A stretch of DNA of 64,000 nucleotides from Acidovorax delafieldii (lineage in GTDB: Bacteria; Pseudomonadota; Gammaproteobacteria; Burkholderiales; Burkholderiaceae_C). Position 1 is the stretch's first letter. Every line of letters begins with the position of its first letter. Positions 34,363 to 63,829 of the stretch are shown here, piece after piece. The translations under genes were made by a program, and so were the position numbers. Where the stretch lies: positions 298-64,297 of the forward strand of contig DFQQ01000017.1 in the NCBI GenBank assembly GCA_002377855.1, written 5' to 3'. The notes beneath the pieces were generated by a model. That model saw only the letters and a list, made by a program, of their open reading frames with translations. It was not told the DNA's origin and ran no database searches.

Positions 34363-34438
34363 GCCGGTGTAGCTCAGTCGGTAGAGCAGCTCATTCGTAA
34401 TGAGAAGGTCGGGTGTTCGATTCATCTCTCCGGCACCA
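34363..34438 (+). tRNA. tRNA-Thr (anticodon CGT)
   Basis: A 76-nt cloverleaf folded by hand: acceptor GCCGGTG/CTCCGGC (one T-T mismatch at 6:67), D arm GCTC-AGTCGGTA-GAGC, anticodon loop TTCGTAA, T arm GGGTG-TTCGATT-CATCT, and encoded CCA. Confidence 0.85.
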
Positions 34439-34599: not shown

Positions 34600-35733
34600 A
34601 TGGCTGCAATCCGTGAACGCAAAGACCAAAACGGCAAAGTGAGCTACCAAGCTCAGGTCCGTATTCAAGGCTATCCGCCGCAGTCGAAAACTTTCTTACG
34701 AAAGACCGACGCCAAGCAATGGGCCATCCAGACGGAAACCGAAATCCGCACTGGCATGACCATCCGGAAAAACTCTGCCAGCAAGCACACCGTGCGCGAG
34801 ATGCTGGAGCGCTATCGCGACAACGTGCTGACCGACAAAGCCAACGGCGGCAAAGACCACAAGACGCACATCGCGTGGTGGATTGACGAGCTTGGTCACT
34901 ACGCCCTATCCGAAGTCACAACCGATCTTGTGACACGGAGCATCGACAAGTTCAAAAAGTCGAAGACACGGCTTGGGAAGCCCCCTGCCCCAGCGACCGT
35001 CCTACGGTACATGATGGCGCTTTCGCATGCCTTCACCGTGGCGCGCAAGCAGTGGAACTGGTGCGAGTCTTCGCCTGTTGAAAACGTGCAGCGGCCGAAA
35101 GTCAATAACGAGCGCACACGGTATCTGACCGACGCAGAGCGCGAGTCTTTGCTCGATGCCTGCAAAAATTCAGCGAACCCCGATCTGTACTTGGTAGTGG
35201 TGTTGGCGATCTCGACCGGCATGCGCAAAGGCGAGATCATGGGCATGCGCTGGCAAGACATTCACACAGCCCCAGACCAGAGCTTCACCCGCGTACATCT
35301 GACCAAAACCAAGAATGACAAGGCACGGTCAGTGTTGCTCACGTCCCTAGCGCTGGAATTGCTGGAAGAACGTCGCGCGAAGGTGATTCAAAGCCGGGAA
35401 GTCAAAGTGGCTACCGGGCTAATTTTTCCAAGCTCCGTGAACGCCGACATACCCGTCGATCTTCGCAAACCATGGGGTGCTGCACTAAAGACCGCTGGCA
35501 TTGAAGAATTTCGCTTCCACGATCTCCGGCACACGACGGCGAGTTACCTGGCAATGAATGGCGCCAGCCTTCTATCTATCAGCAAGGTGCTTGGCCACCA
35601 GACCACCAAGATGACGGAGCGGTACTCCCACTTGGCCACGTCTCACATTGACGAAGTAGTCCGGAGCATGAACGCAAAGAAGTTTGGAACCGCAAATGAG
35701 CCCTCCCCTGCCAACCAAGCCAGCGAAGACTGA
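34600..35733 (+). CDS. int: tyrosine-type site-specific integrase
   Basis: 377 aa. Catalytic-region motifs MRKGEI (Arg), RFHDLRHTTASYL (H-x-x-R) and TERYSH (Tyr). Starts 160 bp from the tRNA. Confidence 0.9.
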   Translation: MAAIRERKDQNGKVSYQAQVRIQGYPPQSKTFLRKTDAKQWAIQTETEIRTGMTIRKNSASKHTVREMLERYRDNVLTDKANGGKDHKTHIAWWIDELGHYALSEVTTDLVTRSIDKFKKSKTRLGKPPAPATVLRYMMALSHAFTVARKQWNWCESSPVENVQRPKVNNERTRYLTDAERESLLDACKNSANPDLYLVVVLAISTGMRKGEIMGMRWQDIHTAPDQSFTRVHLTKTKNDKARSVLLTSLALELLEERRAKVIQSREVKVATGLIFPSSVNADIPVDLRKPWGAALKTAGIEEFRFHDLRHTTASYLAMNGASLLSISKVLGHQTTKMTERYSHLATSHIDEVVRSMNAKKFGTANEPSPANQASED

Positions 35734-35827: not shown

Positions 35828-36100
35828 ATGGAAGCCACGAAGGTAGGAATCCGCGAGTTCCGAGCGGACTTGGCTGAGTACATCGCGGCCAGCAGCCCTG
35901 TTGCTGTGACTCGTCACGGCCAGACGGTCGGCTACTTCATCCCCGTGCACGGCCAGGCTGAGGCGGATTTGGTGGCCTTGAAGAAAGCTAGCCAGTCGCT
36001 CGATAAGCTGTTGTCTGCGCAAGGTGTGGATGTAGAGGACATCGTTGCTGACTTCAAGAAAGCCCGCAAGAAGAGCACTACCGCTGCCAGTGCCAAATGA
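35828..36100 (+). CDS. Phd/YefM-type antitoxin
   Basis: 90 aa with the pattern IREFRADLAEYI...PVAVTRHGQTVGYFIP. AAGGAG RBS. ATGA overlap with the PIN gene. Confidence 0.75.
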   Translation: MEATKVGIREFRADLAEYIAASSPVAVTRHGQTVGYFIPVHGQAEADLVALKKASQSLDKLLSAQGVDVEDIVADFKKARKKSTTAASAK

Positions 36101-36519
36101 GCAGCGCGGCCATCGTTCTGGATGCCAACATCCTGATTCGCGCGGTGCTGGGCAAACGTGTCCGTGAATTGATCCAAGCGCATGCAGCCACCGTCAAGTT
36201 CTTCGCCCCTGATGTGGCGTATGCGGATGCACGGAAATACTTGCCTGCACTGCTGACAAAACGCAGCGTTGATCCCATCCCTGCCATGCTGGTGCTCGAT
36301 GCATTGGAGCGCATCGTCCACCCCATGGATATGGAGGTTTACGGAGGTCTCCAGCAGCAGGCATTGCGCAGGATTGAGATGCGGGATGCCGATGACTGGC
36401 CGGTGCTGGCGTGCGCGATGGTGCTTGGTTGCCCGGTTTGGACTGAGGATGCAGACTTTTTCGGCACTGGTGTGGCAACTTGGACTACCGACCGAATTGC
36501 GCTGTATCTAGGCGGGTGA
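36097..36519 (+). CDS. vapC: PIN-domain toxin (VapC-like)
   Basis: 140 aa with acidic PIN residues in LDANILI, ADDWPVLA and TEDADF. Confidence 0.8.
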   Translation: MSSAAIVLDANILIRAVLGKRVRELIQAHAATVKFFAPDVAYADARKYLPALLTKRSVDPIPAMLVLDALERIVHPMDMEVYGGLQQQALRRIEMRDADDWPVLACAMVLGCPVWTEDADFFGTGVATWTTDRIALYLGG

Positions 36520-36690: not shown

Positions 36691-37377
36691 TTGAAGAACG
36701 TCGGATTCGACACAGAAGAACAGTTGGTAAAAGCCATTGTGGCGTGCACTCGGCGTGCGCAGCGTCGTGACTATCGAGTCGAGTTGGAGCTAGACGCAGG
36801 TGTGGGCATCGCCGACCTCGTACTTGCAAAGAGAGCTGCAAGGACCACGGGTGCGCTCAGAGCGCTATCAAGCGTCAATCCGCGCCTTGCTGTGCTGCTG
36901 AGCCATGGTGTTGGATCAACGATCAGTACCAGAGCAGCTCTGGCAAGCGCGTTAGGCACATCTGACGGCGGGGCGCAACGCGTTCTTGCTCAGCTGTCCT
37001 CTGCTGGCCTTGCATGTGGGTCTGCTAAGGAGTTTTCTATTTCAACAGTATCTACCCTCCCGTTTGAAAGGGTGATTGCGGTTGAGGCCAAGCTCAGCGA
37101 GTGGAAACGCGTGCTTGTACAGGCATACAGGAATTTGCAGTTTGCGGATGAATCCTGGGTTGTTCTCGATCACGCGTATGTGCGGCCTGCACTAGCCCAG
37201 ATTGGCAGGTTCAAGTCTCTCGGTGTAGGTTTGGCGTCCGTTGACTGCCAAGCTGGACTCTACATCCACTCAGCCGCTGTCTTCGGAGGCCCAATGAGCA
37301 TCGCCAAAAGATGGCAGGCTCAGGCAGTGTTGGCTGCCCGGGTAGTGGCAAAGCGGCCTTTACTAGAACGTTTCTAG
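36691..37377 (+). CDS. hypothetical protein with PD-(D/E)xK-like motifs
   Basis: 228 aa. TTG start 8 nt after AAGAGG. GIADLVL ... VIAVEAKLSEWK resembles D...ExK nuclease-core strands, with a possible helical/wHTH insert between them. No family recognised. Confidence 0.45.
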   Translation: MKNVGFDTEEQLVKAIVACTRRAQRRDYRVELELDAGVGIADLVLAKRAARTTGALRALSSVNPRLAVLLSHGVGSTISTRAALASALGTSDGGAQRVLAQLSSAGLACGSAKEFSISTVSTLPFERVIAVEAKLSEWKRVLVQAYRNLQFADESWVVLDHAYVRPALAQIGRFKSLGVGLASVDCQAGLYIHSAAVFGGPMSIAKRWQAQAVLAARVVAKRPLLERF

Positions 37378-38511
37378 GGCTTCCGCCCATGAGGCAAGGT
37401 GGCCGTTTCTCCCATGTCGTTCAAGCGGAAGGCGAGACTCTAACGCCTGATACATCCGCTGTGCATGAGCTACCCGACGTTTGAGCATTGACCGTCGTTC
37501 ATCCAAGCTCATCGCACGCAACTCGTTAACGTGAGCCTGCATGTTGAGGAAATAGTGCTTGTAAAGCGCAGGTTGGTTAAACGTAGGCTCCACCGCCTGT
37601 GATAGCGCGTTCTCAGCCCACTCAGTGGGGTGATATACCTGTCGCCATATTTCCGGCGCTAGTGTCCGAATGCGTTGGGCATCTTCAAACTGAACCCAGT
37701 TCAAAAGTCCAGCCAGATATATACGCGCTTTGGGCCCTCGTACAGCACCGTCGGATTCAACAAACTTGTCTTCCGAGAAGATGCGCGTGTTCTCAAATGC
37801 GCCCATCGTGATGTTGGGATCACCGATGGCAGAGTAAAGCAGGCCTTCTGTGTTCGTGTAGCCAATCGTCAGTTGTAGTCCGGTCCCCATCACCTCCCTG
37901 AAAAACCGCAAGGTCTCCCTCAAAAAGTCAGCGTCTTGTACCTGTTTGGTGTCTCGCTCAAACTCATACATGAGATAGAGCTCGTCCACTTGGTGGAAAT
38001 GAGTAATCCAATCAAGGAGCATCCTACGCCAGCTGGCATGCCTAATCATGCTTGCCTTGACAGCGAGCGACAGGCATAGCGGTCTGTTGCCAGCAACGGC
38101 AAGAAATGGGTTAACCGAGAACTCCTCTTGCATCTGAAAGTACTCGGGATACATCTCCTTCAGGAAGCGGGTCGGAACTACGATCTTGCGAAAGCCCTGG
38201 TCGATCTGGAAATCCACACAGGCCTGCGCGACTTGGGACGAGTGTTCAGCAAATGTCCCGGTTTGAAAGCCCCCTGATGCCTGCTCAGGAAAAAAAGGAT
38301 AAGACAGCAGCTTTCGCTTGCGGGAATTCGGCAGATAGAACTGAGGGTCGAAAAGCGACGCGGCCCGCGTCGCAGGAGCGAGCTTTTCGATTGTCGGCAG
38401 CGCTTGGTGAAGTGGGCTCAGTACAAGTCCGTCTCCGCACCGCTCGCTAAGAAAAGACTCAATGTTCCAGTTCGCGTTATGTCCGACCTGATGGAGCAGT
38501 CCAAGCGGCAT
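37363..38511 (-). CDS. hypothetical protein (382 aa), downstream partner of the Ser/Thr kinase
   Basis: ATG at 38511, 6 nt after a perfect AGGAGG and 14 nt after the kinase stop. No motif recognised. The alternating hydrophobic-strand/helix pattern (FDPQFYLP, IVVPTRF, LSLAVKA, LYLMYEF, LTIGYTN, ITMGAFEN, RIYLAGL) suggests an alpha/beta fold. Confidence 0.6.
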   Translation of the reverse strand: MPLGLLHQVGHNANWNIESFLSERCGDGLVLSPLHQALPTIEKLAPATRAASLFDPQFYLPNSRKRKLLSYPFFPEQASGGFQTGTFAEHSSQVAQACVDFQIDQGFRKIVVPTRFLKEMYPEYFQMQEEFSVNPFLAVAGNRPLCLSLAVKASMIRHASWRRMLLDWITHFHQVDELYLMYEFERDTKQVQDADFLRETLRFFREVMGTGLQLTIGYTNTEGLLYSAIGDPNITMGAFENTRIFSEDKFVESDGAVRGPKARIYLAGLLNWVQFEDAQRIRTLAPEIWRQVYHPTEWAENALSQAVEPTFNQPALYKHYFLNMQAHVNELRAMSLDERRSMLKRRVAHAQRMYQALESRLPLERHGRNGHLASWAEALETF

Positions 38512-38525
38512 GCCTTTCCTCCTAA

Positions 38526-39530
38526 TTAATGGTTCTGGTTGAGGCCGCAAAGTGCCTCAAGTTGCTCAACAAAAATGTTAGGCGTGCGTTGCCGCTCAAA
38601 TTGCGCCTTCTTCATGGCTCTCTCTACGAAATCGGAGAAGGACTGCGAGACTTGCACGAGTTCAGCTAACGGCTTGGGATCGTGTTTTAGAGTCGCGATC
38701 TGAACATCTAACTGGTCCATGTCGTTATCCCAATGGAATGGATGGATACCCGACGCCAGAAGGTACATCACCACACCAATTGCAAAGAAATCCGTTTTGA
38801 AACAGATGAGCGCGCGTTCGTCCCTAAACTGCTCTGGAGCAGCATAGCCCGGGGTTAGGGGGGCAACGAAGCCGGTTTGCGTAAGTCCTTTGGCGCCTGT
38901 CTCACGGACCACGCCTAGGTCGATGACAACCACCTCCCCGTTTGGCCGAACAAGGATGTTCGGCGGTTTGATGTCGCGGTGCACAAACCGTTGTGGATGA
39001 ACCCACAGTGGCATCAATGCGTTTGCAACTCCCAGGGCGAGCGTAGCGATACGCTTTTCATCGCCGCAGTAATGCTGCCAAATGTCCTCAAGCGGGTTCC
39101 CTTCGATGAATTCTTCGATGGTCACATAGAGCCGCTCCGCAAGCGGCTCGTCGGTTTCCGGATTGGTTTTGAACAAGTTGGCGTACAGAAGCTTCGGAAA
39201 ATTGGCAGGCCTGACCGCTGCCAAGATGTCAACTTCAGCCTGAAGGCGAGCAATAGTGTTGGTGTCTGCACCAGACACCACCTTGACGACGACGTTGCCC
39301 CATGACTCCCAGCCCCATAGGAATGGGCTGTCATCTGGATCGTCAATATCCAAAACCTCAAGACTGGCGACAGCCTCCGCTGCTCTGCGCATATCCTCAG
39401 GAATCAAGGAATCTTGAAATCTCGCCAAGTACACAACACGCTGCCCGGAGGGTGCAAGGGCACGGTCGATGATTAGACTCGGCATGCAAACGCGCAACTC
39501 GTTTCTTAGACGCACTGAATCCGATGGCAA
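38526..39530 (-). CDS. Hanks-type serine/threonine protein kinase (stand-alone, cytoplasmic)
   Basis: Beta3 Lys in VVVKVV, alphaC Glu in LQAEVDIL, catalytic loop HRDIKPPNILV, DLG in place of DFG, and YAAPEQF. The Gly-rich loop is degenerate. The TTG at 39530 follows GGGAGGG; the ATG at 39485 is an alternative start. Confidence 0.85.
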   Translation of the reverse strand: MPSDSVRLRNELRVCMPSLIIDRALAPSGQRVVYLARFQDSLIPEDMRRAAEAVASLEVLDIDDPDDSPFLWGWESWGNVVVKVVSGADTNTIARLQAEVDILAAVRPANFPKLLYANLFKTNPETDEPLAERLYVTIEEFIEGNPLEDIWQHYCGDEKRIATLALGVANALMPLWVHPQRFVHRDIKPPNILVRPNGEVVVIDLGVVRETGAKGLTQTGFVAPLTPGYAAPEQFRDERALICFKTDFFAIGVVMYLLASGIHPFHWDNDMDQLDVQIATLKHDPKPLAELVQVSQSFSDFVERAMKKAQFERQRTPNIFVEQLEALCGLNQNH

Positions 39531-39706
39531 TGGAGCCCTCCCTAGCCTTGATCGTTTATCGTCGCCCCGGCGGATAGCCCGAAGCTACGTTACGAAAGAT
39601 AACAGACAAGCCGCATTGGTGGCTATTAAACAAGTGCCGAGCTGACCGCTGATACCACCGAAAATGCGACGGTCATGATGATTGGTGGGTGTAAGAAATT
39701 GATCCA

Positions 39707-40708
39707 TCACAGCAAACTCGGAATCTTCCTCCGCGCGACAGGGCGGATGTACTTGGCCAAGGTCACGTCAGACTTGTGCCCAGTCTGCTCTCGTATCTGC
39801 CACGGCTGCAGTCCCTTCTCCGCTGCGCTTGTGCAATAGCCAGCCCTCAAGCTATGGCCGCTGACTTTCTTCGCGTCCCCGCCAACACGCTCCACAGACG
39901 CCTTCACCACTAGCGCCACGGACTGCGCGGACAAACCCAGCCGTGCAACGCGGTCATGGCGGCTGACGGCACGAAACACAAACCCCTCATTGATCCCCGA
40001 AACTTCCAGCCAACGCGCGAGGGCTTGGACTGGACAACGCTCTCCACTGGCATGCGGGATGAACACCGTACGACCATGGCCTTCTTGATCGGTCTTGCTA
40101 GATGGCAAGAAAATCTCCACCCCATTGGCCAGATAGGTCAGATGCTCCACTTGTACCGACACAAGCTCAGACCTGCGCATGGCTGAAGCAAAGCCAACGA
40201 GCAGCAGTGCACGATCACGCGCTGCTTTGACTGGCTTCTTCTGCTGGTCGATCATGACCAGCGCCGCCAGCAGATCATCTTTGATCATTGGCTGAACTTG
40301 CCGCTGCTTGGTGCCAAGCGTTCGGCGAATGCCTTGCATGACGCGCTTCACCGTCTCACTCCGGGCCGGAGATTCCATAGATTTTTCGAGATGAGCCTTG
40401 TGGATCGCGGTCACCCGTCGCTCCAAGGTCGCTACCGACAATTTTTCCGCGCACCGGGCCAGGTACTCGGCAAGAGCCGCCGGGCTGGCCGGAACACTCC
40501 CGCCACTGGCAAAAAAATGCTTCAAATCAGAGGCATATGCACGCTTCGTAGCCGCTGACTGACTGGCCGCGATGAACAGCTCGGCGGTGGCCGAAAAACC
40601 GCTCAGAACGCCCTCTGGCGGCATTTGCAGTGTGCGGTTGGACGTGGTGGTGGTGCGAGCAGACAAAGCTGCGCCAGCGCCCTCCTGCGGAGTGCGAATT
40701 TTCTTCAT
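39707..40708 (-). CDS. second tyrosine recombinase / site-specific integrase
   Basis: ATG at 40708 (MKKIRTP...). N-terminal SAM-like region TKRAYASDLKHF. Catalytic motifs MRRSEL (Arg), HSLRAGYCTS (H-x-x-R) and LAKYIR (Tyr). Confidence 0.85.
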   Translation of the reverse strand: MKKIRTPQEGAGAALSARTTTTSNRTLQMPPEGVLSGFSATAELFIAASQSAATKRAYASDLKHFFASGGSVPASPAALAEYLARCAEKLSVATLERRVTAIHKAHLEKSMESPARSETVKRVMQGIRRTLGTKQRQVQPMIKDDLLAALVMIDQQKKPVKAARDRALLLVGFASAMRRSELVSVQVEHLTYLANGVEIFLPSSKTDQEGHGRTVFIPHASGERCPVQALARWLEVSGINEGFVFRAVSRHDRVARLGLSAQSVALVVKASVERVGGDAKKVSGHSLRAGYCTSAAEKGLQPWQIREQTGHKSDVTLAKYIRPVARRKIPSLL

Positions 40709-40740
40709 GGTGAGTCCTATGGACGGGTTGGAAAAACAAT

Positions 40741-40770
40741 AAAAAACGGCCCGCAAATGGGGCCGTTTTG
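40741..40770. terminator. bidirectional hairpin terminator between the helicase operon and the recombinase
   Basis: A6 run, then ACGGCCC-gcaaatg-GGGCCGT, then T4. This reads as a stem plus T-run on both strands. Confidence 0.6.
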
Positions 40771-41122: not shown

Positions 41123-43900
41123 TCATTTTCCTTGACACAAAATTTCAACATAACCGATGAGCTCTGCCGAGTAGCTACCATCGCCATTCGCAGTTCCTTT
41201 ATGCTTTAGCTCCCGCTGCAACGTGGGCTCGACGGCGCGCGCGAACATCCCCAACCTCTGCTCTGCCGAAAACTTCGGCAAGGCCACCGGTGCCTGCAAG
41301 TAGCTCTCGCACTTGCGTTCAATGGCAGGCGCGCGCGTACCGTCTTCCTTGACGGCGATGGGCTGCACGACGAGGCGCCGGTCTCCACTCTTGCCGGATG
41401 TCTCAACCATCCAGATGGACAGCAGCACAGGTTCATCGACATCGGCCAGCACCGCCAAACCCACATCTTCGGGCGGCACGCTGCGCCAGCGCCCAAGCTC
41501 CTCCTGCACCAACGGGTGATCCAGACCCATCAGCTCAAGGGAATCGTTGCCGGTGGCCGTCTCGCGGTTCAAGGTGAACCGCGCGCGGCGGGCACCATCG
41601 ACGTTCACCAAGTCATAGGTTTCGTCGTCCACCTTGACTAGCCGCTGCTGCCGATCCGCCACGGCCGCAGACATGAACCGCACCAGGCGATCCAAGCTCG
41701 ACGACACGTCAGAGAAAGGCTTGTAGTCGTCAAGGCTGAATCCTTCGAGGTCTTGGAAGAGTTCAAACACCACCTGCCGCGCCTCGCGTGAGTTGGAAAG
41801 CGCCGCCTCCAGCTCAACTTGCGTCCGCTTCAATTCGGGGTCCGACAACGCCTCCTGATACAGCCGGTCATAGTTCAACCGCTCCGACAGCTGCCCCAGA
41901 ATCTGCGCGCGCAGGTCTTCGGCAACGTTGCCCTGGTCATCGACCTTGCCGACCGTGCGAGCAATCTCGGTCAGCTTTTCATCCAGCAGCATGAAGATGC
42001 GGCCTTCGATGGTGTCTGACAGCACAAGGTTGTAGACCTGCGCGGTGTGGTTCTGCCCGTAACGGTGGATACGACCAATGCGCTGCTCCACATCCATTGG
42101 GTTCCACGGCAGGTCGAAGTTGAACAGGATGCGCGCGAACTGAAGGTTGATACCTTCTCGCCCAGCCGCCGTGCACACCAAGACGCGCGGGCCATCCTTC
42201 TGCCGGAAGCGCCGTTCTGCCGCCACCTTGGCACCATGGTCACCGCCGCGCAGCACCACCACACCCTGGCCTGGGAAGGTCTGGTCAATCTCGCGGGCGA
42301 TCAAGTCCACCGTGCCGAGGTAGGTAGCGAACACCACAATCTTTTCGCTCGGGTCTTGCCGCCACAAGGTGCCCAAGCCATCCAACAGCTTCTGCGCCTT
42401 CGTCTCGCGCTGCTGCGGGAATATCTTGAGCAGGTCTCCTATGCGTAACCGCTCTTCGGGCAAGTGCAGTTCAACGACCGCAGATGCGGCCTCCTCGGCG
42501 TGCGCTGCCGAATACTCGCTGCCATACGGGTCCGACGCCAGCTCAAGCGCCTCCTCGTCCAGCTTCTTGACCAGCCGGTACTTCAGGTCAGCGATGACTC
42601 GGTCCACCTCACTGCGGCCAATCGGATCGCGCGCCAAGCCGAACTCGTCGTGGATCAGCTCTCTGGCTTCGTCTGTCAGCCTCTCCCGGCCTTCAATGTC
42701 CAGGTCTTTGTCACGCAGCAAGGCCTCGTGCAAGGTCAGCATCAGCAGTCGTCGCTTCAACGTGCGCTTGACGGCCGCAAAGCTCGATGCAGCAATCTTC
42801 TGGAAGATCGCCATCAGGAATCCGAGCGCCTGCCCTTTACTGCCCTGGCGCCGCGCCAGGTTGAAACCATCTTCAAGGTACTCGCGCAGCTTTTCGTAGA
42901 ACAGCCGCTCCTCCGCACACATCAGGAAGGATTCGGTGTGAACCCACCGCCGCGCGAACAGCGGTGAGCCATCGGGTTGGCATGCGTCCGCCTTGGTGCG
43001 GCGGAACATCACCGTGTTCAGGCGGTGCCGGTTTTCCAGCATCTCTTCCGGGCTGCCGAACAGCGTCGGGTTGAGCAACTGCGCCAGCATCCAGAACTGG
43101 AAGTGATTACCTTGGTGCGGTGTGGCCGACAACAGCATCAGGTCACGCGAATGGTCCTTCAGCGCCTCGGCCAGCTTGTAGTTCTCGGTCTTGCGTACCT
43201 TGCCGCCGTTGCGGTACGCGGTCAGATGGTGGGCTTCATCGAACACCACCAAGTCCCAACGCGGTGCATCGAGCAGCCGCTTGATACGCGTGGGGCGCTT
43301 CAGGGTGTCAATGCTGGCGATCAGGCGGTCATGCTTGGCAAACGCATTGGTCTTGCGGTCGGTGATATCACCCTCAGAGCCGAACACCTCGAAGTCAAGG
43401 TTGAACACCTCGTTCAATTCGCGGTGCCAGTTGTGCACCAGACCGGCAGGCACAACCATCAAAGCGCGGTTCAGCTCGCCTCGGCTGGCCAGCTCGCGCA
43501 AGATCAGCGCGGTCTCAATGGTCTTGCCTAGGCCCACCTCGTCGGCGATGAGATAGCGCCGGGGAGATGCGGTGGCAATCCGGTGAGTCAACACCACCTG
43601 ATGCGGCAGCAGGTCGATCTTGGCGGAGGTCAGCGCCGATGCGCTCTCCATGACCGGCAGCGCATGCGCCTCGTAGGACAGCCATGCCTTGCGCGCGCGA
43701 TCCTCGCCGCCATCGACGGCACGCAAGATGCGCTCGGTGCGTGACAGCTGGCGGCGCACCGCCGCGACAGGAACGCGGCGCTCGCCGATGCTGAAGAACG
43801 CCCGCAGGTATCCGTCACGGGCGGGGTCGAGAACGACGCCAGAGCCAAACTCGTGATGGCTGATCCGCTCGCCGGGTTGAAACTGAAGCTCCTTATCCAC
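41123..43900 (-). CDS. SNF2-family (COG0553-type) helicase
   Basis: 925 aa with a GTG start. Motif I DEVGLGKT, motif II DEAHHL, SATP, and motif VI QRIGRIHRYGQ. Last gene of the six-gene operon. Confidence 0.9.
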   Translation of the reverse strand: MDKELQFQPGERISHHEFGSGVVLDPARDGYLRAFFSIGERRVPVAAVRRQLSRTERILRAVDGGEDRARKAWLSYEAHALPVMESASALTSAKIDLLPHQVVLTHRIATASPRRYLIADEVGLGKTIETALILRELASRGELNRALMVVPAGLVHNWHRELNEVFNLDFEVFGSEGDITDRKTNAFAKHDRLIASIDTLKRPTRIKRLLDAPRWDLVVFDEAHHLTAYRNGGKVRKTENYKLAEALKDHSRDLMLLSATPHQGNHFQFWMLAQLLNPTLFGSPEEMLENRHRLNTVMFRRTKADACQPDGSPLFARRWVHTESFLMCAEERLFYEKLREYLEDGFNLARRQGSKGQALGFLMAIFQKIAASSFAAVKRTLKRRLLMLTLHEALLRDKDLDIEGRERLTDEARELIHDEFGLARDPIGRSEVDRVIADLKYRLVKKLDEEALELASDPYGSEYSAAHAEEAASAVVELHLPEERLRIGDLLKIFPQQRETKAQKLLDGLGTLWRQDPSEKIVVFATYLGTVDLIAREIDQTFPGQGVVVLRGGDHGAKVAAERRFRQKDGPRVLVCTAAGREGINLQFARILFNFDLPWNPMDVEQRIGRIHRYGQNHTAQVYNLVLSDTIEGRIFMLLDEKLTEIARTVGKVDDQGNVAEDLRAQILGQLSERLNYDRLYQEALSDPELKRTQVELEAALSNSREARQVVFELFQDLEGFSLDDYKPFSDVSSSLDRLVRFMSAAVADRQQRLVKVDDETYDLVNVDGARRARFTLNRETATGNDSLELMGLDHPLVQEELGRWRSVPPEDVGLAVLADVDEPVLLSIWMVETSGKSGDRRLVVQPIAVKEDGTRAPAIERKCESYLQAPVALPKFSAEQRLGMFARAVEPTLQRELKHKGTANGDGSYSAELIGYVEILCQGK

Positions 43901-43909
43901 GCGCAGACC

Positions 43910-44410
43910 TCATGTGATCCGCAGGTGGAAAAGACCCGCAGCCTTGGCCCCTTCGCGCAGCAAGATTTCTTGCGGGTACTCGTTGGCCTCGCCCCAAAGG
44001 ATGCGGCCGAAGGCCAACAGGCTTTCACTGTGGGGCGCAGCACAGCGCCACTCGATGGAATCAGTAGCCGGGTTGAGCTTAATGCGGCCTTGACCTGCTG
44101 GCAGCCAGAAAATCAGCGCCGCCTCGCCCTCGTAATAGGCTTGGAATGAGAGGATGGCGTCCTTGATGGCATCGCCCAACCAGGCTTCCGCATCTTCCGG
44201 CGTCAGCAGATCAAGACTGGCCTCCAGCCCAGCCACCACCACCGTGTTGTTGCCATTGCTCGGCAGGTCGTCAGGCCAATTGCCAACCGCCTGCAAAAAC
44301 TGCCGCAGGCTCCAGACTTGCCCAGCCTCGCAAACTTGGTTGCGGGCCTCTTCGTCCCACACCCAACTAGTGCCCCGCCGTTGCCAGACGGTATCGAGGG
44401 TTTGCTTCAT
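43910..44410 (-). CDS. small conserved-position ORF (166 aa) between methyltransferase and helicase
   Basis: The ATG at 44410 forms an ATGA overlap with the methyltransferase stop. It occupies the slot that I recall a DUF3780-type small protein filling in DUF499/DUF1156/helicase loci; this is unverified. Confidence 0.55.
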   Translation of the reverse strand: MKQTLDTVWQRRGTSWVWDEEARNQVCEAGQVWSLRQFLQAVGNWPDDLPSNGNNTVVVAGLEASLDLLTPEDAEAWLGDAIKDAILSFQAYYEGEAALIFWLPAGQGRIKLNPATDSIEWRCAAPHSESLLAFGRILWGEANEYPQEILLREGAKAAGLFHLRIT

Positions 44411-47400
44411 ACCTCGTACTCCTCGAACAGCGAAGTCTGTTGCGGCATGGCCGTCTGCGTCGCAGCCCAAGCGTTGTAGATGGACACCGCACGCGAGGCC
44501 GCATTGCGATTTTCCTGATCGGGACCGTGCCGATGCAGCCACTCCAGCAAGGGCTTCAAGGCCACGTGCGGCTTGAAGTTTTCGTTCTTCAGCGTGTCAG
44601 CCGCATTGATGCCACTGCCGTCGAAGCAGGCACCAACCAGCACCAGTGCCTGATCCAGATCGGAGGTCAGCCGACGCTTGTGCTTGCCAGACCACTCACG
44701 AGCGAAGTCCAGCGGCTTCACGCGCGTGAAAACCTTGCTCTTCTCAGAACACCATCCGCGCTGCTCGAATTCATCGGGCGTCGTGATGGAACCCTTCAGG
44801 AACTTCTGCAGCTGGTCGCGCTTCATCTCTGTGGCACTGCCGAAGGTACGAAGAAACTGGCGCGTGATCGGCTCGGCGTTGACCGGCGGCGGCTCCTTAC
44901 CCTTGTCAGCATCCTCGTCGATGAGCTGATTGATACCGATCAACGCCTCCTTGACGGAGATCGTGCGTCCTTCGTCAACGTAGACCTTGCCGTAGTGCCG
45001 AGAGAAGTACTCCAACGCCTTGCCGCGCCGGATCACCTGAATGTCCGCCGCTGGCAGACCTTCCTTCGCATGGTTTTCGAGCATGGCCTGTAGCTGGCGC
45101 ACATCAGCCATTACCTCACGGCGCATGCGACCCCAGCTAACCGGCTTGGGCTCCTCTGTGCGCTTGCGACAGACGTGGATGACGTCGTACTCGATTTTTT
45201 GCGCACCGAATTCAGCGTTGTCACCTTTAGTTTCGTCAGATCGAATTGGGTAAGTCGCTTCTAGGTAGTAGCCCGCATCGAACAGGGACTCAAGCACGGC
45301 CACCCACGGCTCATCCTCACTATGGTGAAAGGTGAAGGCGAGGATGCCGCTTGGCTTCAAAAGGCGATGCGCCTCGCGCCAGCATTGCGTTAACAGCCTT
45401 TGATAGAAACCGTTTGAGTCTTCTGGCTCGCGAAAGCTGTTAGCAACGGCTTCCAGCGACTTTGGGGTGTATTCCGCCTCGAAAATGTCAGGGTACTTGC
45501 CTTTAAGTGCCAGACGCAGCCAGACATAAAAAAAGTCGGCAAGCTCGGAATATTGCAAAAGGTCGCCGAACGGCGGATCAGTGATGACTAAGTCTAGGCT
45601 TGCTGTTTCAAGCTCGTGAAGATCGGTAGATGAGCCTTGACGAACATCCACATTCAATACTGGATCGCCCGGCTTGACCTTCTCACTTTTCCCACTCATC
45701 CTTTCAGCCAGAGCTGGGTCTTGGCGGCTAAGACTTTCTACGCTGACAACTTCCCAAGGATCAATTGCCCATTCTCGACCTTCGAGAACTCCCTCTGAGC
45801 TGGACGCCCAGTTACCACGACCCAGGTCAGGGAATACGCAATTCTCAACCACCGTTAACTTCGGGTGGTAGTTACTGTTCGAGAACATCGGCTCTGGCGT
45901 GTCTCGCTGTGGATTCCAAAAACTAAACAAGCACTGGTTGCGCAAATATTGCTGAAAAGCACCTAGAACGTACTCGCGCGTGGCCCAGTCATAGTCTCCT
46001 ATATTGACGATTGCCTTAAGCAACTGCGCATGCACCAAAAGCTGGCGGGCGCTAAACATGTCAGACCATTTCTTGTAGCCATGACCGTTGGCTATCAAAT
46101 CCTTAACCACGGCACGCAGGCTTGGTGGAATGTCTGATTGTGGCCAATAGTCTTTGAGATCGGCCTCCTTACGTACTTCCCATTCAGCTAGGGCTGCGTC
46201 GTACTGCTTGGCATGCGTGATATCGAACGCCGCGAAGAAGCGGCCACTATAGGGCTTTCCTGACGTATCGCGCTTTGGAGCGTAGCCCTGAACCGCATAG
46301 GCGCCAAAAGGCGCAGTTTTTTCTGTTGGTCGCAATGCTGAGATGATGTCCTGAGTGGTACCGCATTGCGCACAAGTAAATTTTCCATTGCCAGCCTTGT
46401 TGGCGCGATCTGTCGGAAAGGTGGTTTTCGTTTCAGGGCACGTCACTTCTTCCGGCAATTTGCCGCGCACTTCCAGCAATCGAATTTTCGACGCGCGCTC
46501 ATGATCCCAGCGCGCTGTCGTCGCAACATCATCCTGCGCCGACCCACCATATGGCTGGTTATTTGAATCCTGCTTGGGCGAACCGACCAGCCACTGTGGA
46601 TGCACCAGAAGGCTCAACTCGACCTTCTTGTTCGCACCTTTGCCGAGTTTGATTTGGCCCCGGTCACCAACAATAACCAATCCATCTTTAGGGTGGGTAT
46701 GGGCGGCGGCGTTATGTGTGCAGTGCGGACAGGTTACGCCCTGCGCAGGATCAAGTACCGCATAGGGCTGTTCCGAGGACACAACAAACAAAGGCACATC
46801 GGGCGCCATACGCGCGGCCTCAGCTTCAATATGAAATTTAGCACCACAGTTGCCGCAGGAGTGTTCCCAGTGCTTGACAGTGATTGTCTTCACGGCGATT
46901 ACTGGACTGCTCATGATCGGTGTACGGTGGCCGCAGCCCGTCACTTGACACGGGCCATGCTTAGCCCAGAAGGTGTAGATGACTTCCGGACCTTCGTAGC
47001 GGTATTCCTTCCTCTGCTCACGCGGGATGGTCAGCGGATCGAAGTCCGCAGGCATCACCTTTTTTGTCAGGAGATGTGTCCACGTGCCCTTTTCCCCTTC
47101 TGGACCGTCGCAGTAGTAATACGGCATGATCTGAGGCTTGACCTCCGCCTCGATGTCAGCGAGCAGGCGCTTCACCTCGTCCAGATCAACATTCGCCAGC
47201 TCTTGTTTGACCACGAACCACGCAACCGGGTTCAGATCATTGCCGACCATCTGCATCCCAAGGCGTGAGCCTTCCACCAGCGTAGTGCCACCGCCCATGA
47301 AGATGTCGGCCACCTTCAGATGCTTGAAAGCACCCTTTTTCTGGTGGTTGGCGTAATAGTTGTCCCACACCAGCTTGGCGGCGTGCGACTTGTCTTCCGG

Positions 47401-47664
47401 CGCCTTAGTCGCAGCAGCAATCAGCATCGAGCGGAAGACGCTGGAGCGGCGCCGCGCCCACCACTTGGACATTTGGTAGATCGGCTTTCCCGCGTTACCC
47501 TCAATGATTGCCACCTGATTGACAGGCAGGATCGGGAAATCCACTTCCAAACAAGTCTTGGGGCGATCAGGATCGTTGAAGTCAACGGTTTCAAGCGCGA
47601 CAGCCTTGCCGGCACCAACAGCCTTTGCGACTTCCTGGGCGAGTAGTTCTTTTTTGGTGGCCAT
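44407..47664 (-). CDS. DUF1156-type (COG1743-like) split adenine-specific DNA methyltransferase with Zn-ribbon inserts
   Basis: 1085 aa. N-terminal MSKWWARRRS, AdoMet motif FMGGGTTLVEG, then about 560 aa later motif IV ITDPPFGD followed by YSELADFFYVWLR. CxxC pairs (CGNC, CPHC, CAQC) lie in the insert. Confidence 0.85.
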   Translation of the reverse strand: MATKKELLAQEVAKAVGAGKAVALETVDFNDPDRPKTCLEVDFPILPVNQVAIIEGNAGKPIYQMSKWWARRRSSVFRSMLIAAATKAPEDKSHAAKLVWDNYYANHQKKGAFKHLKVADIFMGGGTTLVEGSRLGMQMVGNDLNPVAWFVVKQELANVDLDEVKRLLADIEAEVKPQIMPYYYCDGPEGEKGTWTHLLTKKVMPADFDPLTIPREQRKEYRYEGPEVIYTFWAKHGPCQVTGCGHRTPIMSSPVIAVKTITVKHWEHSCGNCGAKFHIEAEAARMAPDVPLFVVSSEQPYAVLDPAQGVTCPHCTHNAAAHTHPKDGLVIVGDRGQIKLGKGANKKVELSLLVHPQWLVGSPKQDSNNQPYGGSAQDDVATTARWDHERASKIRLLEVRGKLPEEVTCPETKTTFPTDRANKAGNGKFTCAQCGTTQDIISALRPTEKTAPFGAYAVQGYAPKRDTSGKPYSGRFFAAFDITHAKQYDAALAEWEVRKEADLKDYWPQSDIPPSLRAVVKDLIANGHGYKKWSDMFSARQLLVHAQLLKAIVNIGDYDWATREYVLGAFQQYLRNQCLFSFWNPQRDTPEPMFSNSNYHPKLTVVENCVFPDLGRGNWASSSEGVLEGREWAIDPWEVVSVESLSRQDPALAERMSGKSEKVKPGDPVLNVDVRQGSSTDLHELETASLDLVITDPPFGDLLQYSELADFFYVWLRLALKGKYPDIFEAEYTPKSLEAVANSFREPEDSNGFYQRLLTQCWREAHRLLKPSGILAFTFHHSEDEPWVAVLESLFDAGYYLEATYPIRSDETKGDNAEFGAQKIEYDVIHVCRKRTEEPKPVSWGRMRREVMADVRQLQAMLENHAKEGLPAADIQVIRRGKALEYFSRHYGKVYVDEGRTISVKEALIGINQLIDEDADKGKEPPPVNAEPITRQFLRTFGSATEMKRDQLQKFLKGSITTPDEFEQRGWCSEKSKVFTRVKPLDFAREWSGKHKRRLTSDLDQALVLVGACFDGSGINAADTLKNENFKPHVALKPLLEWLHRHGPDQENRNAASRAVSIYNAWAATQTAMPQQTSLFEEYEV

Positions 47665-47668
47665 CTTA

Positions 47669-48589
47669 TTATTTGCGTGTCGTCAACATCATCTCAACTC
47701 CGTAGAGCCTGCGTAACACCCTAGCTAAGCCTCTCAATTTGTGCATCAGCGGGTTTGCAAGCGCAGCATCCGACTTGCTTAGGCTTGCCTGGAAGTAAGC
47801 ATAGACACGGGCGTACTGATCGTCAGAATCTTGATTCCCAACGATACTCCTGAGCATGCTTTCGATGTACGCGTCAATATTTTCATTTGTCTTGCTGCTT
47901 GAAGAAAAAAGCTCCTCAACTTGGCCCTGTATGAGCCGCAGCAAATCGACAGACTCCGCCTTCACAGGATCGCTATGCAAGCTAACTTCATGAAACGAAT
48001 TGAAGTAGAACTTATGATCTTCCGGTGGATCCGATACGTCCATTTTCGGAGGGATACAAATGAGGCCCTCAAAATATGGAACTGAAGGGTAATCAAGGAG
48101 TAGCCCGTGCCGGAAAGTCAGGCGAGAATTTACCCACGCTTGGTCATATAAGGGGTCACCGCCGGACCTCAATCGCTTTGAATCAATAAAAGTCGGTGCG
48201 ACATAGAACACCTTCTCACCAGAATTTTGAAGGTCAACCATGAAGCTATGCTGCGATTTAGGTGCCTTCGCGGACTTCGCTCGAAGCGCAAAGTGAAACA
48301 ATCCGGCATCATCATCAAACGCCCATCCTTTGCGACGCATATAAGCTGCAGGTTGAGAAGACCAAGGGCGCCCAGTGAAGTCGGGATATTTGTATTGGAA
48401 ATACAAGGGTACCGCTTGCACTACGGCTGCATCCCAACCACGAGTAGCCTCCGCTCCAGGAGAAATAGGAACGATCTCTACTTTCCTATCAGGCCCTGTT
48501 AGCTGCCGAAAGATAGAAACAATGTAGTCATGAATGGATTGTTCGATGACAGGGGCATCGGACGGGGATGTCCACGGAGCCTTCACCAT
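47669..48589 (-). CDS. hypothetical protein with PD-(D/E)xK-like signature (306 aa)
   Basis: The ATG at 48589 overlaps the upstream stop by 7 nt. GWDAAVVQAVPLYFQYKYPD has a D-x12-Q-x-K pattern. Visibly more AT-rich than the flanking genes. The longer ORF to 48937 overlaps the PglZ-like gene and was rejected. Confidence 0.6.
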   Translation of the reverse strand: MVKAPWTSPSDAPVIEQSIHDYIVSIFRQLTGPDRKVEIVPISPGAEATRGWDAAVVQAVPLYFQYKYPDFTGRPWSSQPAAYMRRKGWAFDDDAGLFHFALRAKSAKAPKSQHSFMVDLQNSGEKVFYVAPTFIDSKRLRSGGDPLYDQAWVNSRLTFRHGLLLDYPSVPYFEGLICIPPKMDVSDPPEDHKFYFNSFHEVSLHSDPVKAESVDLLRLIQGQVEELFSSSSKTNENIDAYIESMLRSIVGNQDSDDQYARVYAYFQASLSKSDAALANPLMHKLRGLARVLRRLYGVEMMLTTRK

Positions 48590-49599
48590 TTCACTCCCCC
48601 TGCTACCGGGTAAGAAATTTCGACAAAGGGTGACAGCACCTCCAGCAGCGAAAGGCCGCCATGGGTCAGCGTTGGGTAGCCTCCCTGGCTCTTCCACTTC
48701 CTGCGCCCCAACGCCAGCAAATGTGCGCCATGCGGGCTGTCCAATTGCAGAGCCACGGGCGGCACAAACGGGCCTGCCTCGCCAGTGCCCACGACGCTGC
48801 GGCCGCTTGAAAAGGTCTTCTTGAGGTGCTGGCCAACATCGCCTTCGGCGTCGGGGAAGTAGCCCGTGGCAGCGTAGCCATGGTCGGACGTGATGACCAG
48901 ACGGCGACCGGTTGCGAGGCGCTCGACGAAAGACCAAAAGTCATCGCTGGTGAGCTGATCGGCGGCATCCTTGGTCAGCGTATCCAGACCTTGACCGGCG
49001 ACTGCTGCATCGTGAATCTTGCTGTCTGGCCAGTGGTGCCAGAACACCCAATTGGGCGCACCGTTGACCAATCCTTCGCAGTCCTTCCACGGCATGTCCA
49101 GGCTTTCGGTCTGCGCGGGCTGAAGACGATGCGCGAGGCCACCACCATTGTTCTGAAGCTGGCTGCGGCGGCCAAACCCAAGGGCGCGAGCAAACTCGTT
49201 GGTCTCGCCAGGGATTTCCGAGGCGTTGGCCGAGACTTCGTGCAAATTGAACCCGCGCTCTTTGGCACCTTGCAACAGCCAGGGCAATTCGCGCAGTGAC
49301 AGGCCGTCCAGAATCAGCACGGCTTTGGCGCTGTACGGCTCCGCCCACCAGCGCGCGAGACGGTCCGAAGTGCGCTCAACGGAATCGCCGAAGCTGCTCC
49401 ACAAGTCCCAGCCGCTGGCAGACAGGAAATTGTCCAAGGCGCCGATCTCTCGGTCGCGTTTGATGACTTCGCTCGGGGCGTTGCCAACGGCCAAGGGCTT
49501 GGAGGCAATCTCCGTGGCGCTCTTGACGATGACGCTCCAGGCATCAGCAGCGGAACCCTTGGTCAGTTCCTTCAGGATTTCAGGATGGAGGGCCATCAC
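48583..49599 (-). CDS. short PglZ-like / alkaline-phosphatase-superfamily protein (338 aa)
   Basis: VLILDGLSLRE (metal Asp), IPGETNEF (candidate Thr nucleophile), ITSDHGY and THGGLSLLEVLSPF match the PglZ/AP core. The start (GTG 49599 or ATG 49596) overlaps the upstream TGA. Confidence 0.7.
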   Translation of the reverse strand: MMALHPEILKELTKGSAADAWSVIVKSATEIASKPLAVGNAPSEVIKRDREIGALDNFLSASGWDLWSSFGDSVERTSDRLARWWAEPYSAKAVLILDGLSLRELPWLLQGAKERGFNLHEVSANASEIPGETNEFARALGFGRRSQLQNNGGGLAHRLQPAQTESLDMPWKDCEGLVNGAPNWVFWHHWPDSKIHDAAVAGQGLDTLTKDAADQLTSDDFWSFVERLATGRRLVITSDHGYAATGYFPDAEGDVGQHLKKTFSSGRSVVGTGEAGPFVPPVALQLDSPHGAHLLALGRRKWKSQGGYPTLTHGGLSLLEVLSPFVEISYPVAGGVKW

Positions 49600-62129: not shown

Positions 62130-62182
62130 GACTTCTCCAGTCCATGCATGGCATGGATCAAATAGATATGAAAACCAGTGAT

Positions 62183-62557
62183 TTATTTGACAGTGGGACG
62201 AGAGTCAACCCACTCCAGGAAAGCGATCTCGTCGATCAGGACTCGACGACCCACTTTACGAATTGCGTGAGCAAGACCATTGCCTGGAATAACGTCATTC
62301 CCACCCTTGCCACGCGCACGCAATCGAGGCTTGGATGCAAATATCAATGCACGCAGAGAACCTTCAGTGAATACGGGGTGTTTCACGGAAAACTGCTGGA
62401 CTGAGAGCCACTTTTTTACCTCAGAATTGCCGTGAGATTCCGTCAAGGATTCCTTTTCAACCTTGGACGGAACGCTCTTCAATGTCTTCTTCGACAAAAA
62501 TCTGACAAATGTACTTTCATATCCCGCACTTACATTAGTTGAGACAGGTGAATTCAT
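62183..62557 (-). CDS. excisionase/AlpA-like HTH DNA-binding protein
   Basis: ATG at 62557, 4 nt after AAGGAG. WLSVQQFSVKHPVFTEGSLRALIF...IRKVGRRVLIDEIAFLEWV fits the MerR-like excisionase HTH pattern. Confidence 0.6.
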   Translation of the reverse strand: MNSPVSTNVSAGYESTFVRFLSKKTLKSVPSKVEKESLTESHGNSEVKKWLSVQQFSVKHPVFTEGSLRALIFASKPRLRARGKGGNDVIPGNGLAHAIRKVGRRVLIDEIAFLEWVDSRPTVK

Positions 62558-63814: not shown

Positions 63815-63829
63815 GTAAACAAAGGAAAA

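Follow-up and report, generated by a model that had tools for sequence, protein, structure and literature searches.

A three-gene cassette in Acidovorax delafieldii

We analyzed a 64,000-nucleotide (nt) stretch of DNA from Acidovorax delafieldii (assembly GCA_002377855.1, contig DFQQ01000017.1, positions 298 to 64,297 of the forward strand), here referred to in its full length as the window. An initial annotation, made from the sequence of the window, had pointed to a Ser/Thr protein kinase gene followed by a gene for a 382-amino acid (aa) protein as a candidate two-gene defense module. The locus is a self-contained and horizontally mobile cassette of three genes, which encode the protein kinase, a protein of a new triosephosphate isomerase (TIM)-barrel family and a predicted DNA-binding nuclease, and no named system was matched. 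The cassette is about 2.9 kb in size, with the following genes and signals, of which the last two were read from the sequence:

38526..39530, minus strand: gene 1, minimal Hanks-type Ser/Thr protein kinase, 334 aa, TTG start
37363..38511, minus strand: gene 2, 382 aa, new family with a (beta/alpha)8 TIM-barrel fold and a C-terminal helical bundle, presumed enzyme or ligand sensor
36691..37377, plus strand: gene 3, 228 aa, predicted nuclease of the PD-(D/E)xK type, in which an inserted MarR/Crp-like winged helix separates the "PD" strand from the "ExK" strand
39536..39542, minus strand: Shine-Dalgarno-like GGGAGGG, with a 5-nt spacer to the TTG start codon of the kinase gene
38512..38525, minus strand: kinase/barrel intergenic spacer TTAGGAGGAAAGGC, 14 nt, with AGGAGG at 38518..38523

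The spacer between the first two genes agreed with its initial description, in that 14 nt follow the TAA stop codon of the kinase gene (38528..38526) and a perfect AGGAGG is located 6 nt ahead of the ATG start codon of the gene for the 382-aa protein (38511). At other loci, the kinase and barrel genes overlapped by ATGA or were located at most 14 nt apart almost everywhere, which suggests that the two genes are translationally coupled. The third gene is convergent with the barrel gene, and the 3' ends of the two overlap by 15 nt (37363..37377) in the window and by 8 to 45 nt in most convergent loci. A scan of the locus for promoters and terminators gave no signal beyond the shuffled expectation. 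Both open reading frames (ORFs) of the kinase-barrel pair are considered to be real genes rather than chance ORFs, because 430 homologs of the 382-aa protein were identified, with E-values down to 4e-259.

A minimal and catalytically complete kinase

The kinase matched Pfam Pkinase with an E-value of 5.9e-24 (85 bits, cut-off 31.7) over residues 80 to 319. The match covered model positions 27 to 257 only, and since it begins at position 27 the region of the Gly-rich loop was left unaligned. All of the catalytic motifs listed in the initial annotation were present in the translation (NVVVKVV, LQAEVDIL, HRDIKPPNILV, DLG, and YAAPEQF). In an alignment of 20 diverse members of the kinase family, the residues K83, E99, H184-R-D186, N191, D204-x-G206, E233 (of the APE motif), D247 (in alphaF), and R313 were invariant in all 20 sequences, as was Thr217 in the activation loop. 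The TTG start codon is backed by the N-terminal sequence MPxDSxxLR, which is conserved among the homologs.

The glycine-rich loop is degenerate, as first described: there is no GxGxxG motif, and a conserved SGQ[RK]xV[YF] sequence with a single Gly is found in its place. The acidic insert that had been noted ahead of the beta3 Lys is real and falls between beta2 and beta3, but it is confined to the Burkholderiales clade and variable in length. Members of the family are about 280 to 350 aa long and carry neither a sensor nor any other extra domain, in line with the initial description of the window kinase. Judging from the aligned sequences, in which the catalytic and substrate-binding C-lobe residues are all invariant, this is a catalytically complete, stand-alone Hanks-type Ser/Thr kinase. 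Its top PADLOC matches, to mad6 (1.3e-29) and PD-T4-6 (1.6e-28), covered the kinase domain only, and the NCBIfam models gave 67 bits for MADS6 (cut-off 460), 26 bits for PglW (cut-off 990), and an E-value of 1e-25 for PknB. At the sequence level, the mad6 and PD-T4-6 matches thus represent generic kinase-domain similarity, comparable to that of PknB.

A new family of TIM-barrel proteins

The 430 homologs of the 382-aa protein were retrieved from a database of 5.8 billion proteins; all of them are about 381 to 385 aa long, and either unnamed or annotated as "hypothetical." An exhaustive profile search delimited a family of 621 clusters at 50% identity, 330 of which were matched at E<=1e-10. The full-length clusters were nearly all 380 to 415 aa in size, and there were no fusions among the best 150. 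Searches with the single sequence and with profiles of both close and distant members gave no match in Pfam, PADLOC, NCBIfam, PHROGs, or the sequences in the PDB, which bears out the initial view that the protein belongs to no known family.

The AlphaFold2 model, built from a 36-sequence alignment, has a predicted local distance difference test score (pLDDT) of 83.4 and a predicted template modeling (pTM) score of 0.86, and displays an eight-stranded beta/alpha barrel followed by a C-terminal helical bundle. Foldseek searches of the PDB with this model recovered generic barrels only, namely TIM, HpaI aldolase, ribulose-phosphate epimerase (RPE), transaldolase, and the phosphoribosyl pyrophosphate (PRPP)-binding protein MJ1099. 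The probability was 1.00 to TIM, RPE, and HpaI, with E-values of about 3e-4 to 4e-3, template modeling (TM) scores of 0.3 to 0.5, and identities of 8% to 15%. The alpha/beta, possibly TIM-like fold that had been suggested from the pattern of strands and helices is thereby confirmed at the level of the model.

The family alignment, which reaches down to 20% identity, contains four invariant residues (G10, D55, P113, and F245) and eight near-invariant residues (Q8, Q57, Q102, Y179, G217, Y218, G237, and R243). In the model, nearly all of these appear to be placed at or just past the C-terminal ends of the strands, which would correspond to the classical active-site face of a TIM barrel. The modeled pocket is enzyme-like and conserved, and implies an enzymatic or ligand-sensing activity. 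Two basic loops, at residues 60 to 82 (…SRKRKLLSYPFFPE…) and 239 to 259 (…FENTRIFS…), have pLDDT values below 50, and both are, together with the adjoining RGPKARIY segment, almost invariant within the close family. Such a combination of low model confidence and high conservation is the pattern expected if the loops become ordered only upon binding of a substrate or a partner.

Two more specific identities were considered for the barrel. In a Foldseek search of a library of viral structures, proteins annotated as "queuine tRNA-ribosyltransferase" (TGT) or DpdA-like ranked on top (E-value 2.5e-3, TMt 0.51) and accounted for 4 of the top 32 matches. None of 23 family members matched Pfam TGT at E<=5, hhalign gave a probability of 0.16% against a profile of phage 9g-type DpdA, which was narrow and included 9g-like DpdA proteins at >=70% identity only, and no conserved Cys cluster corresponding to the Zn-binding Cys/His cluster of TGT and DpdA was seen in the family alignment. 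Since all three checks were negative, the likeness to DpdA and TGT is at the level of the fold only. A relationship to TatD and QatD was rejected, as H7-Q-V-G-H11 represents an HxxxH rather than an HxH motif, H7 and H11 vary in distant members, neither Pfam nor PADLOC gave a match, and TatD was not among the top 50 fold matches in the PDB.

A predicted nuclease with an inserted winged helix

The 228-aa product of the third gene has a homolog family of its own, which matches the family of the barrel protein. Among 21 diverse members, from archaea to Proteobacteria, the conserved residues are E9, E33, G39-x-[PA]-D42, E132-x-K134, W138, and Q144-A-x-R-[YN]. The structural model places E9 on helix 1 (H9-22), D42 on strand 2 (E40-48), E132 and K134 on strand 3 (E125-134), and the Q144 motif on helix 2. 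Taken together, the sequence and the model predict a PD-(D/E)xK nuclease signature with a RecB-like QxxxY tail and a canonical alpha-beta-beta-beta-alpha-beta core, and hence a nuclease activity. No nuclease family in Pfam or PADLOC was matched by the protein.

The winged helix (wHTH) comprises residues about 50 to 120 and is located between the "PD" and "ExK" strands. Its presence was confirmed by sequence profile matches to the MarR-like structure PDB 2d1h (E-value 3.9e-4) and to PA3341 (2.6e-3), and three members of the family also matched Pfam HTH_Crp_2, with a best E-value of 1.8e-5. The insert is missing from the homologs at two loci, L047 and L048, from Desulfatiglandales and Balneolales (locus numbers here and below are those of our survey).

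The three genes evolve as a unit

To define the distribution of the cassette, we scanned a single genome for each GTDB species, obtained 51 loci, and ran hidden Markov models of the three proteins against all loci. The three genes were located side by side in every locus with enough DNA, about 60 loci in all, which contained 45 non-redundant complete triads. The triad was incomplete only in decayed copies (L040 and L051) and in two contigs whose sequence stops just past the 382-aa gene (L046 and L049). The third gene is therefore as obligatory as the other two, and the two-gene module initially proposed has to be extended accordingly, with the further addition of a phosphatase gene in some lineages. 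The barrel gene was syntenic with the gene for the minimal kinase in 56 of the 58 loci examined, the two exceptions being the decayed copies. One outcome that would have spoken against the module, that the homologs belong to a metabolic family and are not syntenic with kinases, was the opposite of what was found.

The triad is spread over eight or more bacterial phyla, the haloarchaea, and the Nanohaloarchaea. Among the hosts are Beta- and Gammaproteobacteria (Vibrio, Aeromonas, Silvania, Pseudescherichia, Acerihabitans), Verrucomicrobia, Bdellovibrio, Bacillota, Desulfatiglandales, Balneolales, Bacteroidales, Planctomycetes (including Brocadiaceae), Obscuribacterales, and Nanohaloarchaea. The layout is one and the same in Hydrogenophaga, Variovorax, Roseateles, and Acidovorax, with the kinase gene, the 382-aa gene, and a convergent gene for a protein of about 225 to 240 aa, and the flanking sequences are entirely unlike. 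Across the 45 triads, the order was kinase followed by barrel with a convergent third gene in 37, third gene-kinase-barrel in the same direction in 6, and kinase-barrel-third gene in the same direction in 2. In the variants from Planctomycetes and Brocadiaceae, two adjacent ORFs were checked as extra accessory genes and gave no match to PDB sequences.

Pairwise sequence identities in the 45 non-redundant triads were correlated between the kinase and the barrel (r=0.94), the kinase and the third protein (r=0.88), and the barrel and the third protein (r=0.83), with a Mantel p-value of 0.001. The mean pairwise identity was highest for the barrel (0.40), and was 0.38 and 0.31 for the other two. 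As the gene set has been kept despite rearrangements and the three proteins have co-evolved, there is strong evidence that the triad is a single functional unit.

We noted that several copies were degraded. In the complete chromosome of Noviherbaspirillum sp. ST 5-3 (NZ_CP176528, 8046..9525; L040), the kinase gene is gone and the barrel gene lacks the first ~120 codons, with an ORF that starts from about residue 124. The nuclease gene in this copy is intact and all of the catalytic motifs are kept, and a nuclease without a kinase and an intact barrel therefore seems to be tolerated, as judged from this single case. Degraded-looking copies were also seen in metagenome-assembled genomes (MAGs), including L014 and L041, in both of which the barrel gene is split in two, and L051, a fragment with a kinase remnant and the barrel in one ORF. 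Decayed copies are as expected for accessory and costly genes.

A phosphatase has been added in some lineages

A gene for a PPP-type Ser/Thr phosphatase flanks the triad in 8 gammaproteobacterial loci, and the genera that carry it are Oceanobacter, Vibrio, Aeromonas, Silvania, Pseudescherichia, and Acerihabitans. In Gammaproteobacteria, the phosphatase gene adjoins the nuclease gene, is divergent from it, and encodes a protein of about 255 aa with the motifs GDxHG, GDxxDRG, GNHE, and GHTP (Pfam Metallophos, 3e-17), which is a PPP-family, lambda-phosphatase-like protein. In archaea, weaker matches to the phosphatase profile (E-values 4.5e-8 and 3.2e-7) were obtained directly downstream of the barrel gene, in a Nanohaloarchaeon and in a plasmid of Natribaculum. 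The genes are found at the following loci:

L031, L033, L038, L039, L042, L043, L045, L052, and L062: phosphatase gene beside the nuclease gene
L054, 2964..3647, and L060, 7204..7893: phosphatase gene in archaeal loci

The cassette in the window contains no phosphatase gene. That a phosphatase has been recruited independently in two distant lineages argues for reversible protein phosphorylation being central to the system.

Genomic islands and mobile elements

In the window, the cassette is part of a genomic island, with the following features on either side of it:

34363..34438, plus strand: tRNA-Thr(CGT), identified by ARAGORN, marks the left border of the cassette-carrying genomic island
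34600..35733, plus strand: integrase ORF, tyrosine recombinase, at the tRNA border of the island
39707..40756, minus strand: tyrosine recombinase gene (Pfam Phage_integrase, 8e-14), between the cassette and a helicase/methylase operon

To the right of the tRNA-Thr gene, the GC content drops from about 0.64 to about 0.55, in agreement with the initial observation that the genes are AT-richer than the core and located in a tRNA island. With its two tyrosine recombinase genes, the island gives the impression of a mosaic, built from modules that were acquired separately. It was also noted that in nearly all loci the GC content of the cassette was below that of its flanks, with a difference of up to 20 percentage points, for example 0.39 versus 0.60 and 0.33 versus 0.52.

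The operon beyond the second recombinase gene (41123..52349, minus strand) had been described as BREX-like, a label that needs correction. It encodes a 925-aa SNF2 helicase, which matched the PADLOC models BrxHI (3.5e-103), HmaA (1.4e-91), and DrmD (5e-74), and thus BrxHI and HmaA about equally well, and a 1085-aa methylase with a weak DUF1156 N-terminus, which matched HmaB (3.4e-39) better than PglX (3e-21). The other ORFs are of 210, 422, 338, and 917 aa, the last three of which had no match in PADLOC. The operon looks like an Hma/DISARM/BREX-related helicase-methylase system with unrecognized extra components rather than a canonical BREX system, and an integrase gene of its own separates it from the cassette. 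Directly upstream of the nuclease gene (35828..36519, plus strand), there are two overlapping ORFs of 90 and 140 aa, the second of which opens with MSSAAIVLDANILIRA… and looks PIN-like by eye. This is the pair that the initial annotation took for a TA module, and the cassette is located between it and the second recombinase gene. At the right end of the window (62001..64000), the GC content falls to 0.47, compared with 0.55 to 0.60 in the rest of the island, and this part may be another acquired segment.

Elsewhere, the cassette is carried by several types of mobile elements. In Roseateles (L004/L005, 1..21155), the triad is located within about 5 kb of Tn7-like genes for TnsB, TniB, and TniQ/TnsD, and is probably cargo of a Tn7-like transposon; genes for DUF4365, DUF2971, and H-NS-like proteins were also found in this neighborhood. 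All three genes were identified on plasmids in Bacillus mycoides and in the haloarchaeon Natribaculum breve, and a third plasmid match was obtained in B. bombysepticus. Among 2.9 million viral contigs in IMG/VR there was a single match, a 16.8-kb element (L062, 3719..10746), in which a 796-aa gene product 72% identical to the P4 alpha primase is followed by a four-gene cassette. In Silvania confinis (L039, 5243..11720), a four-gene cassette starts 343 nt after the P4 psu gene (5.7e-83) and near a tRNA-Leu(CAA) gene. P4-like satellites have a variable locus that has been documented as a reservoir for antiviral systems (PMC9122126). The Silvania locus resembles the canonical psu-int hotspot of P4 in part only, since psu and tRNA-Leu(CAA) are present and the 446-aa ORF is not an integrase. 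No integrase was found in the DNA fetched for the two P4-associated loci, L039 and L062. In the Silvania locus, a gene for an HNH_2 endonuclease follows the cassette.

Many other copies are three-gene insertions that stand alone among metabolic genes of the chromosome, and no genes of mobile elements are found within 8 kb of them. Two neighborhoods contained further genes of interest. In Hydrogenophaga sp. BPS33 (L001, 5258..6337), an unrelated second kinase gene, for a 359-aa protein with a Pkinase domain and a weak cold-shock-domain match, is located about 3 kb from the triad, next to an insertion sequence (rve) transposase gene and an HTH_XRE gene. Downstream of the cassette in a Pseudescherichia MAG (L045, 10817..16670), there are genes for an HNH endonuclease, the type VI secretion protein Hcp, and a 1222-aa fusion of an SF1 helicase (AAA_11/AAA_12) and a PLD nuclease, the last of which looks defense-like.

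Comparison with known systems

Hanks-type kinases are known in defense, and were counted as precedent for the role of the cassette. The annotation libraries used here were Pfam, NCBIfam, PADLOC v2.0 (2023), and PHROGs, and two of the three proteins matched no family in them. We found no defense system composed of a kinase, a TIM barrel, and a nuclease described in the literature, although newer releases of DefenseFinder or PADLOC, or further papers, may already list one.

The cassette kinase has a eukaryote-like Ser/Thr kinase domain and the status of an accessory gene in common with PD-T4-6 and Stk2, the latter of which was compared by its description. PD-T4-6 and Stk2 are stand-alone kinases that phosphorylate host proteins, whereas the cassette kinase is minimal and never found without its barrel and nuclease partners outside decayed copies. 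It was not assigned to PD-T4-6, because the PADLOC match covered the kinase domain only and was no better than that to PknB, and because the kinase is always part of the triad. MADS and Pgl (BREX type 2) are more similar in composition, in that they are multi-gene systems with a Ser/Thr kinase, and in Pgl also a phosphatase, beside DNA-directed enzymes. The cassette differs from both in having no methyltransferase, PglZ, or other mad or pgl genes, and in having partners from different, undescribed families. Membership in MADS was rejected, as the kinase reached 67 of the 460 bits required for mad6 and the partners matched no mad model. The same holds for Pgl, where the PglW score was 26 bits against 990, PglX, PglZ, and PglY are all missing from the cassette, and the methylase operon nearby in the window lies beyond an integrase gene.

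TerY-P and the kinase-kinase-phosphatase (KKP) module likewise encode, in a small mobile cassette, a switch that relies on reversible Ser/Thr phosphorylation. TerY-P consists of a TerY/vWA protein, a PP2C phosphatase, and a kinase, and KKP contains two kinases, whereas the phosphatase of the cassette is of the PPP type and optional, and the kinase is invariably partnered by a TIM barrel and a nuclease. The cassette was not assigned to TerY-P, since the partner proteins had no TerY/vWA match in Pfam and the accessory phosphatase is PPP/Metallophos rather than PP2C. The KKP module controls Pf prophages and is documented to defend against lytic phages as well (PMC11341870). A mechanistic precedent for a kinase-activated nuclease is provided by CapK/CapS-VapC, in which a danger-responsive kinase phosphorylates a partner and thereby turns on a nuclease (PMC13373217). 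None of its components are related to the cassette families, CapK being an anti-sigma-factor (GHKL-type) kinase, CapS a STAS protein, and the nuclease a PIN/VapC protein.

Among individual components of other systems, DpdA/TGT and QatD/TatD have a (beta/alpha)8 barrel in common with gene 2 and no sequence or profile relationship to it. The third protein has the E...[PA]D...ExK...QxxxY(N) core in common with RecB/Cas4-like nucleases, and differs from these in that it has no Fe-S Cys cluster and contains a wHTH inside the nuclease core. We classify the cassette as a kinase-based defense or conflict system; in each comparison run with a known kinase defense, it was placed outside, in accordance with the first impression that the gene pair matches no named system.

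A model for the function of the cassette, and its alternatives

A defense role for the cassette is plausible. We tentatively favor, as the leading candidate, an anti-phage or anti-mobile-element defense in which the kinase and the barrel form the sensing unit and phosphorylation gates a DNA nuclease. From this, a direction of signaling, a substrate, a trigger, and a biological role can be inferred for the cassette as follows. The kinase and the barrel would make up a sensing and switching unit, in which the barrel may bind or convert an infection-linked ligand or a nucleic-acid feature. Upon activation, the kinase would autophosphorylate on Thr217 and phosphorylate the nuclease, the barrel, or both. 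In this way, the nuclease would be licensed to cut DNA, with direct restriction or abortive infection as the outcome, and the phosphatase, where present, would reset the switch or set its threshold. By means of its winged helix, the nuclease protein may also autoregulate its own, separately transcribed gene. The sensor/effector pair of the initial annotation is probably wrong in detail, because the obvious effector, the nuclease, had been missed.

The genomic contexts bear on this model to different degrees. The carriage on P4-like satellites, plasmids, a Tn7-like element, and tRNA islands is better contextual evidence than the enrichment of defense genes among the neighbors. Single contexts are strong, namely the island in the window, the P4-like satellites, and the Tn7-like cargo.

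A number of observations weigh against the defense model. Across 38 non-redundant cassettes, only ~7 of the 150 nearest ORFs matched PADLOC defense models and the Pfam content was heterogeneous, so that the enrichment in defense islands that had been expected is only modest, and many copies are located among ordinary metabolic or regulatory genes. The cassette was absent from 5,426 complete Escherichia coli genomes and from 50,697 phage records. The barrel and nuclease families matched 0 of 5027 PADLOC models, which leaves no tie to a validated system, and no Ser or Thr residue is invariant family-wide in the barrel or the nuclease. In searches with Foldseek and with profiles against the PDB, the third protein matched by its wHTH insert only and not by a nuclease core, and the N-terminal 41 residues of its model have pLDDT values below 50. 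As the structural matches cover the winged helix only and the N-terminus is poorly modeled, the assignment as a nuclease is based on the motifs and the topology.

A different distribution of roles, which we consider unlikely, is that the barrel is the effector. The kinase-activated barrel would then deplete or modify an essential metabolite, a nucleotide, or a nucleic acid, and the third protein would mainly be a wHTH regulator or accessory protein, with a nuclease-like core that is secondary or inactive. In line with such a role, the barrel is the best conserved of the three proteins and shows the tightest co-evolution with the kinase (r=0.94), and its pocket is enzyme-like. Its nearest structural neighbors are the phosphate-binding barrels TIM, RPE, and the PRPP-binding MJ1099, and strands 7 and 8 contain or end with near-invariant Gly residues, which is also seen in phosphate-binding barrels. 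Moreover, the third gene comes first in the operons with the order third gene-kinase-barrel, which is a typical position for a regulator. However, E9, D42, E132, K134, and Q144 show little or no variation from archaea to Proteobacteria, which is unexpected for a mere regulator, and the wHTH appears to be dispensable, given that L047 and L048 do without it.

It is rather improbable that the cassette is a module for the maintenance, addiction, or regulation of mobile elements, in which the kinase/phosphatase switch controls the element in a KKP-like manner or acts as a toxin-antitoxin-like stabilizer. The carriage on plasmids, satellites, Tn7-like elements, and tRNA islands and the weak enrichment of known defense neighbors would fit with this, and phosphorylation-based control has a precedent in the Pf prophages (PMC11341870). 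On the other hand, many copies are isolated chromosomal insertions with no element genes within 8 kb, and nothing in the cassette is replication-, partition-, or excision-like. As KKP also defends against lytic phages, this explanation overlaps with the defense model.

We find it very improbable that the cassette works by a restriction-modification (R-M)-like logic, whereby the kinase and the barrel mark the host DNA, compare the phage kinase with aGPT-pyrophosphorylase or the base exchange by DpdA, and the nuclease cuts unmarked DNA. As in many R-M systems, the nuclease gene is transcribed separately and overlaps the gene with which it converges, the DpdA/TGT-like proteins are the best, if weak, structural neighbors of the barrel in the viral library (E-value 2.5e-3, TMt 0.51), and there are conserved basic loops on its catalytic face. 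This is countered by the hhalign probability of 0.16% against 9g-type DpdA and by the lack of matches to Pfam TGT or aGPT-Pplase at E<=5 in any of the 23 members. The kinase also has a full protein-kinase C-lobe, and it is protein phosphatases that have been recruited. Furthermore, the intact nuclease in Noviherbaspirillum, without the kinase and the start of the barrel, should be lethal under R-M logic, although only one such case was seen.

An ordinary housekeeping or metabolic cluster under kinase regulation, as the barrel fold typical of metabolic enzymes and the location of some copies among metabolic genes might suggest, is highly implausible in view of the patchy spread across phyla and domains, the strong compositional anomaly, the flanks that differ in every genus, the constant inclusion of a protein with nuclease motifs, the decay in some genomes, the carriage on mobile elements, and the lack of a curated family in NCBIfam or Pfam.

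Implications

In its broadest form, the defense model would make the triad an unrecognized family of immune systems common to bacteria and archaea, in which a kinase/PPP switch is wired to new TIM-barrel chemistry and controls a wHTH-bearing RecB-like nuclease, a possibility that we regard with some doubt. In that case, the barrel might, for instance, recognize or convert a nucleotide specific to infection, a feature of nucleic acids, or a phospho-ligand. With similar reserve, we suggest that the barrel family may carry new chemistry.

Kinase signaling is a cornerstone of eukaryotic innate immunity, and in prokaryotic defense it is known from a handful of systems, most of which are single-gene or poorly understood. 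The cassette would add to these a compact pathway from a kinase, with or without a phosphatase, to a nuclease, in many bacterial phyla as well as in archaea. It would also add a large unannotated family of TIM-barrel proteins, with >600 clusters at 50% identity, and a nuclease architecture with a winged helix inside the catalytic core, and would thereby supply families that are missing from the PADLOC (2023), Pfam, and NCBIfam libraries. Because the module is small and the catalytic residues are clear in each of its three proteins, it is directly testable. If the model is true, the cassette would represent phospho-signaling immunity with a new enzymatic component, and not just another kinase toxin.

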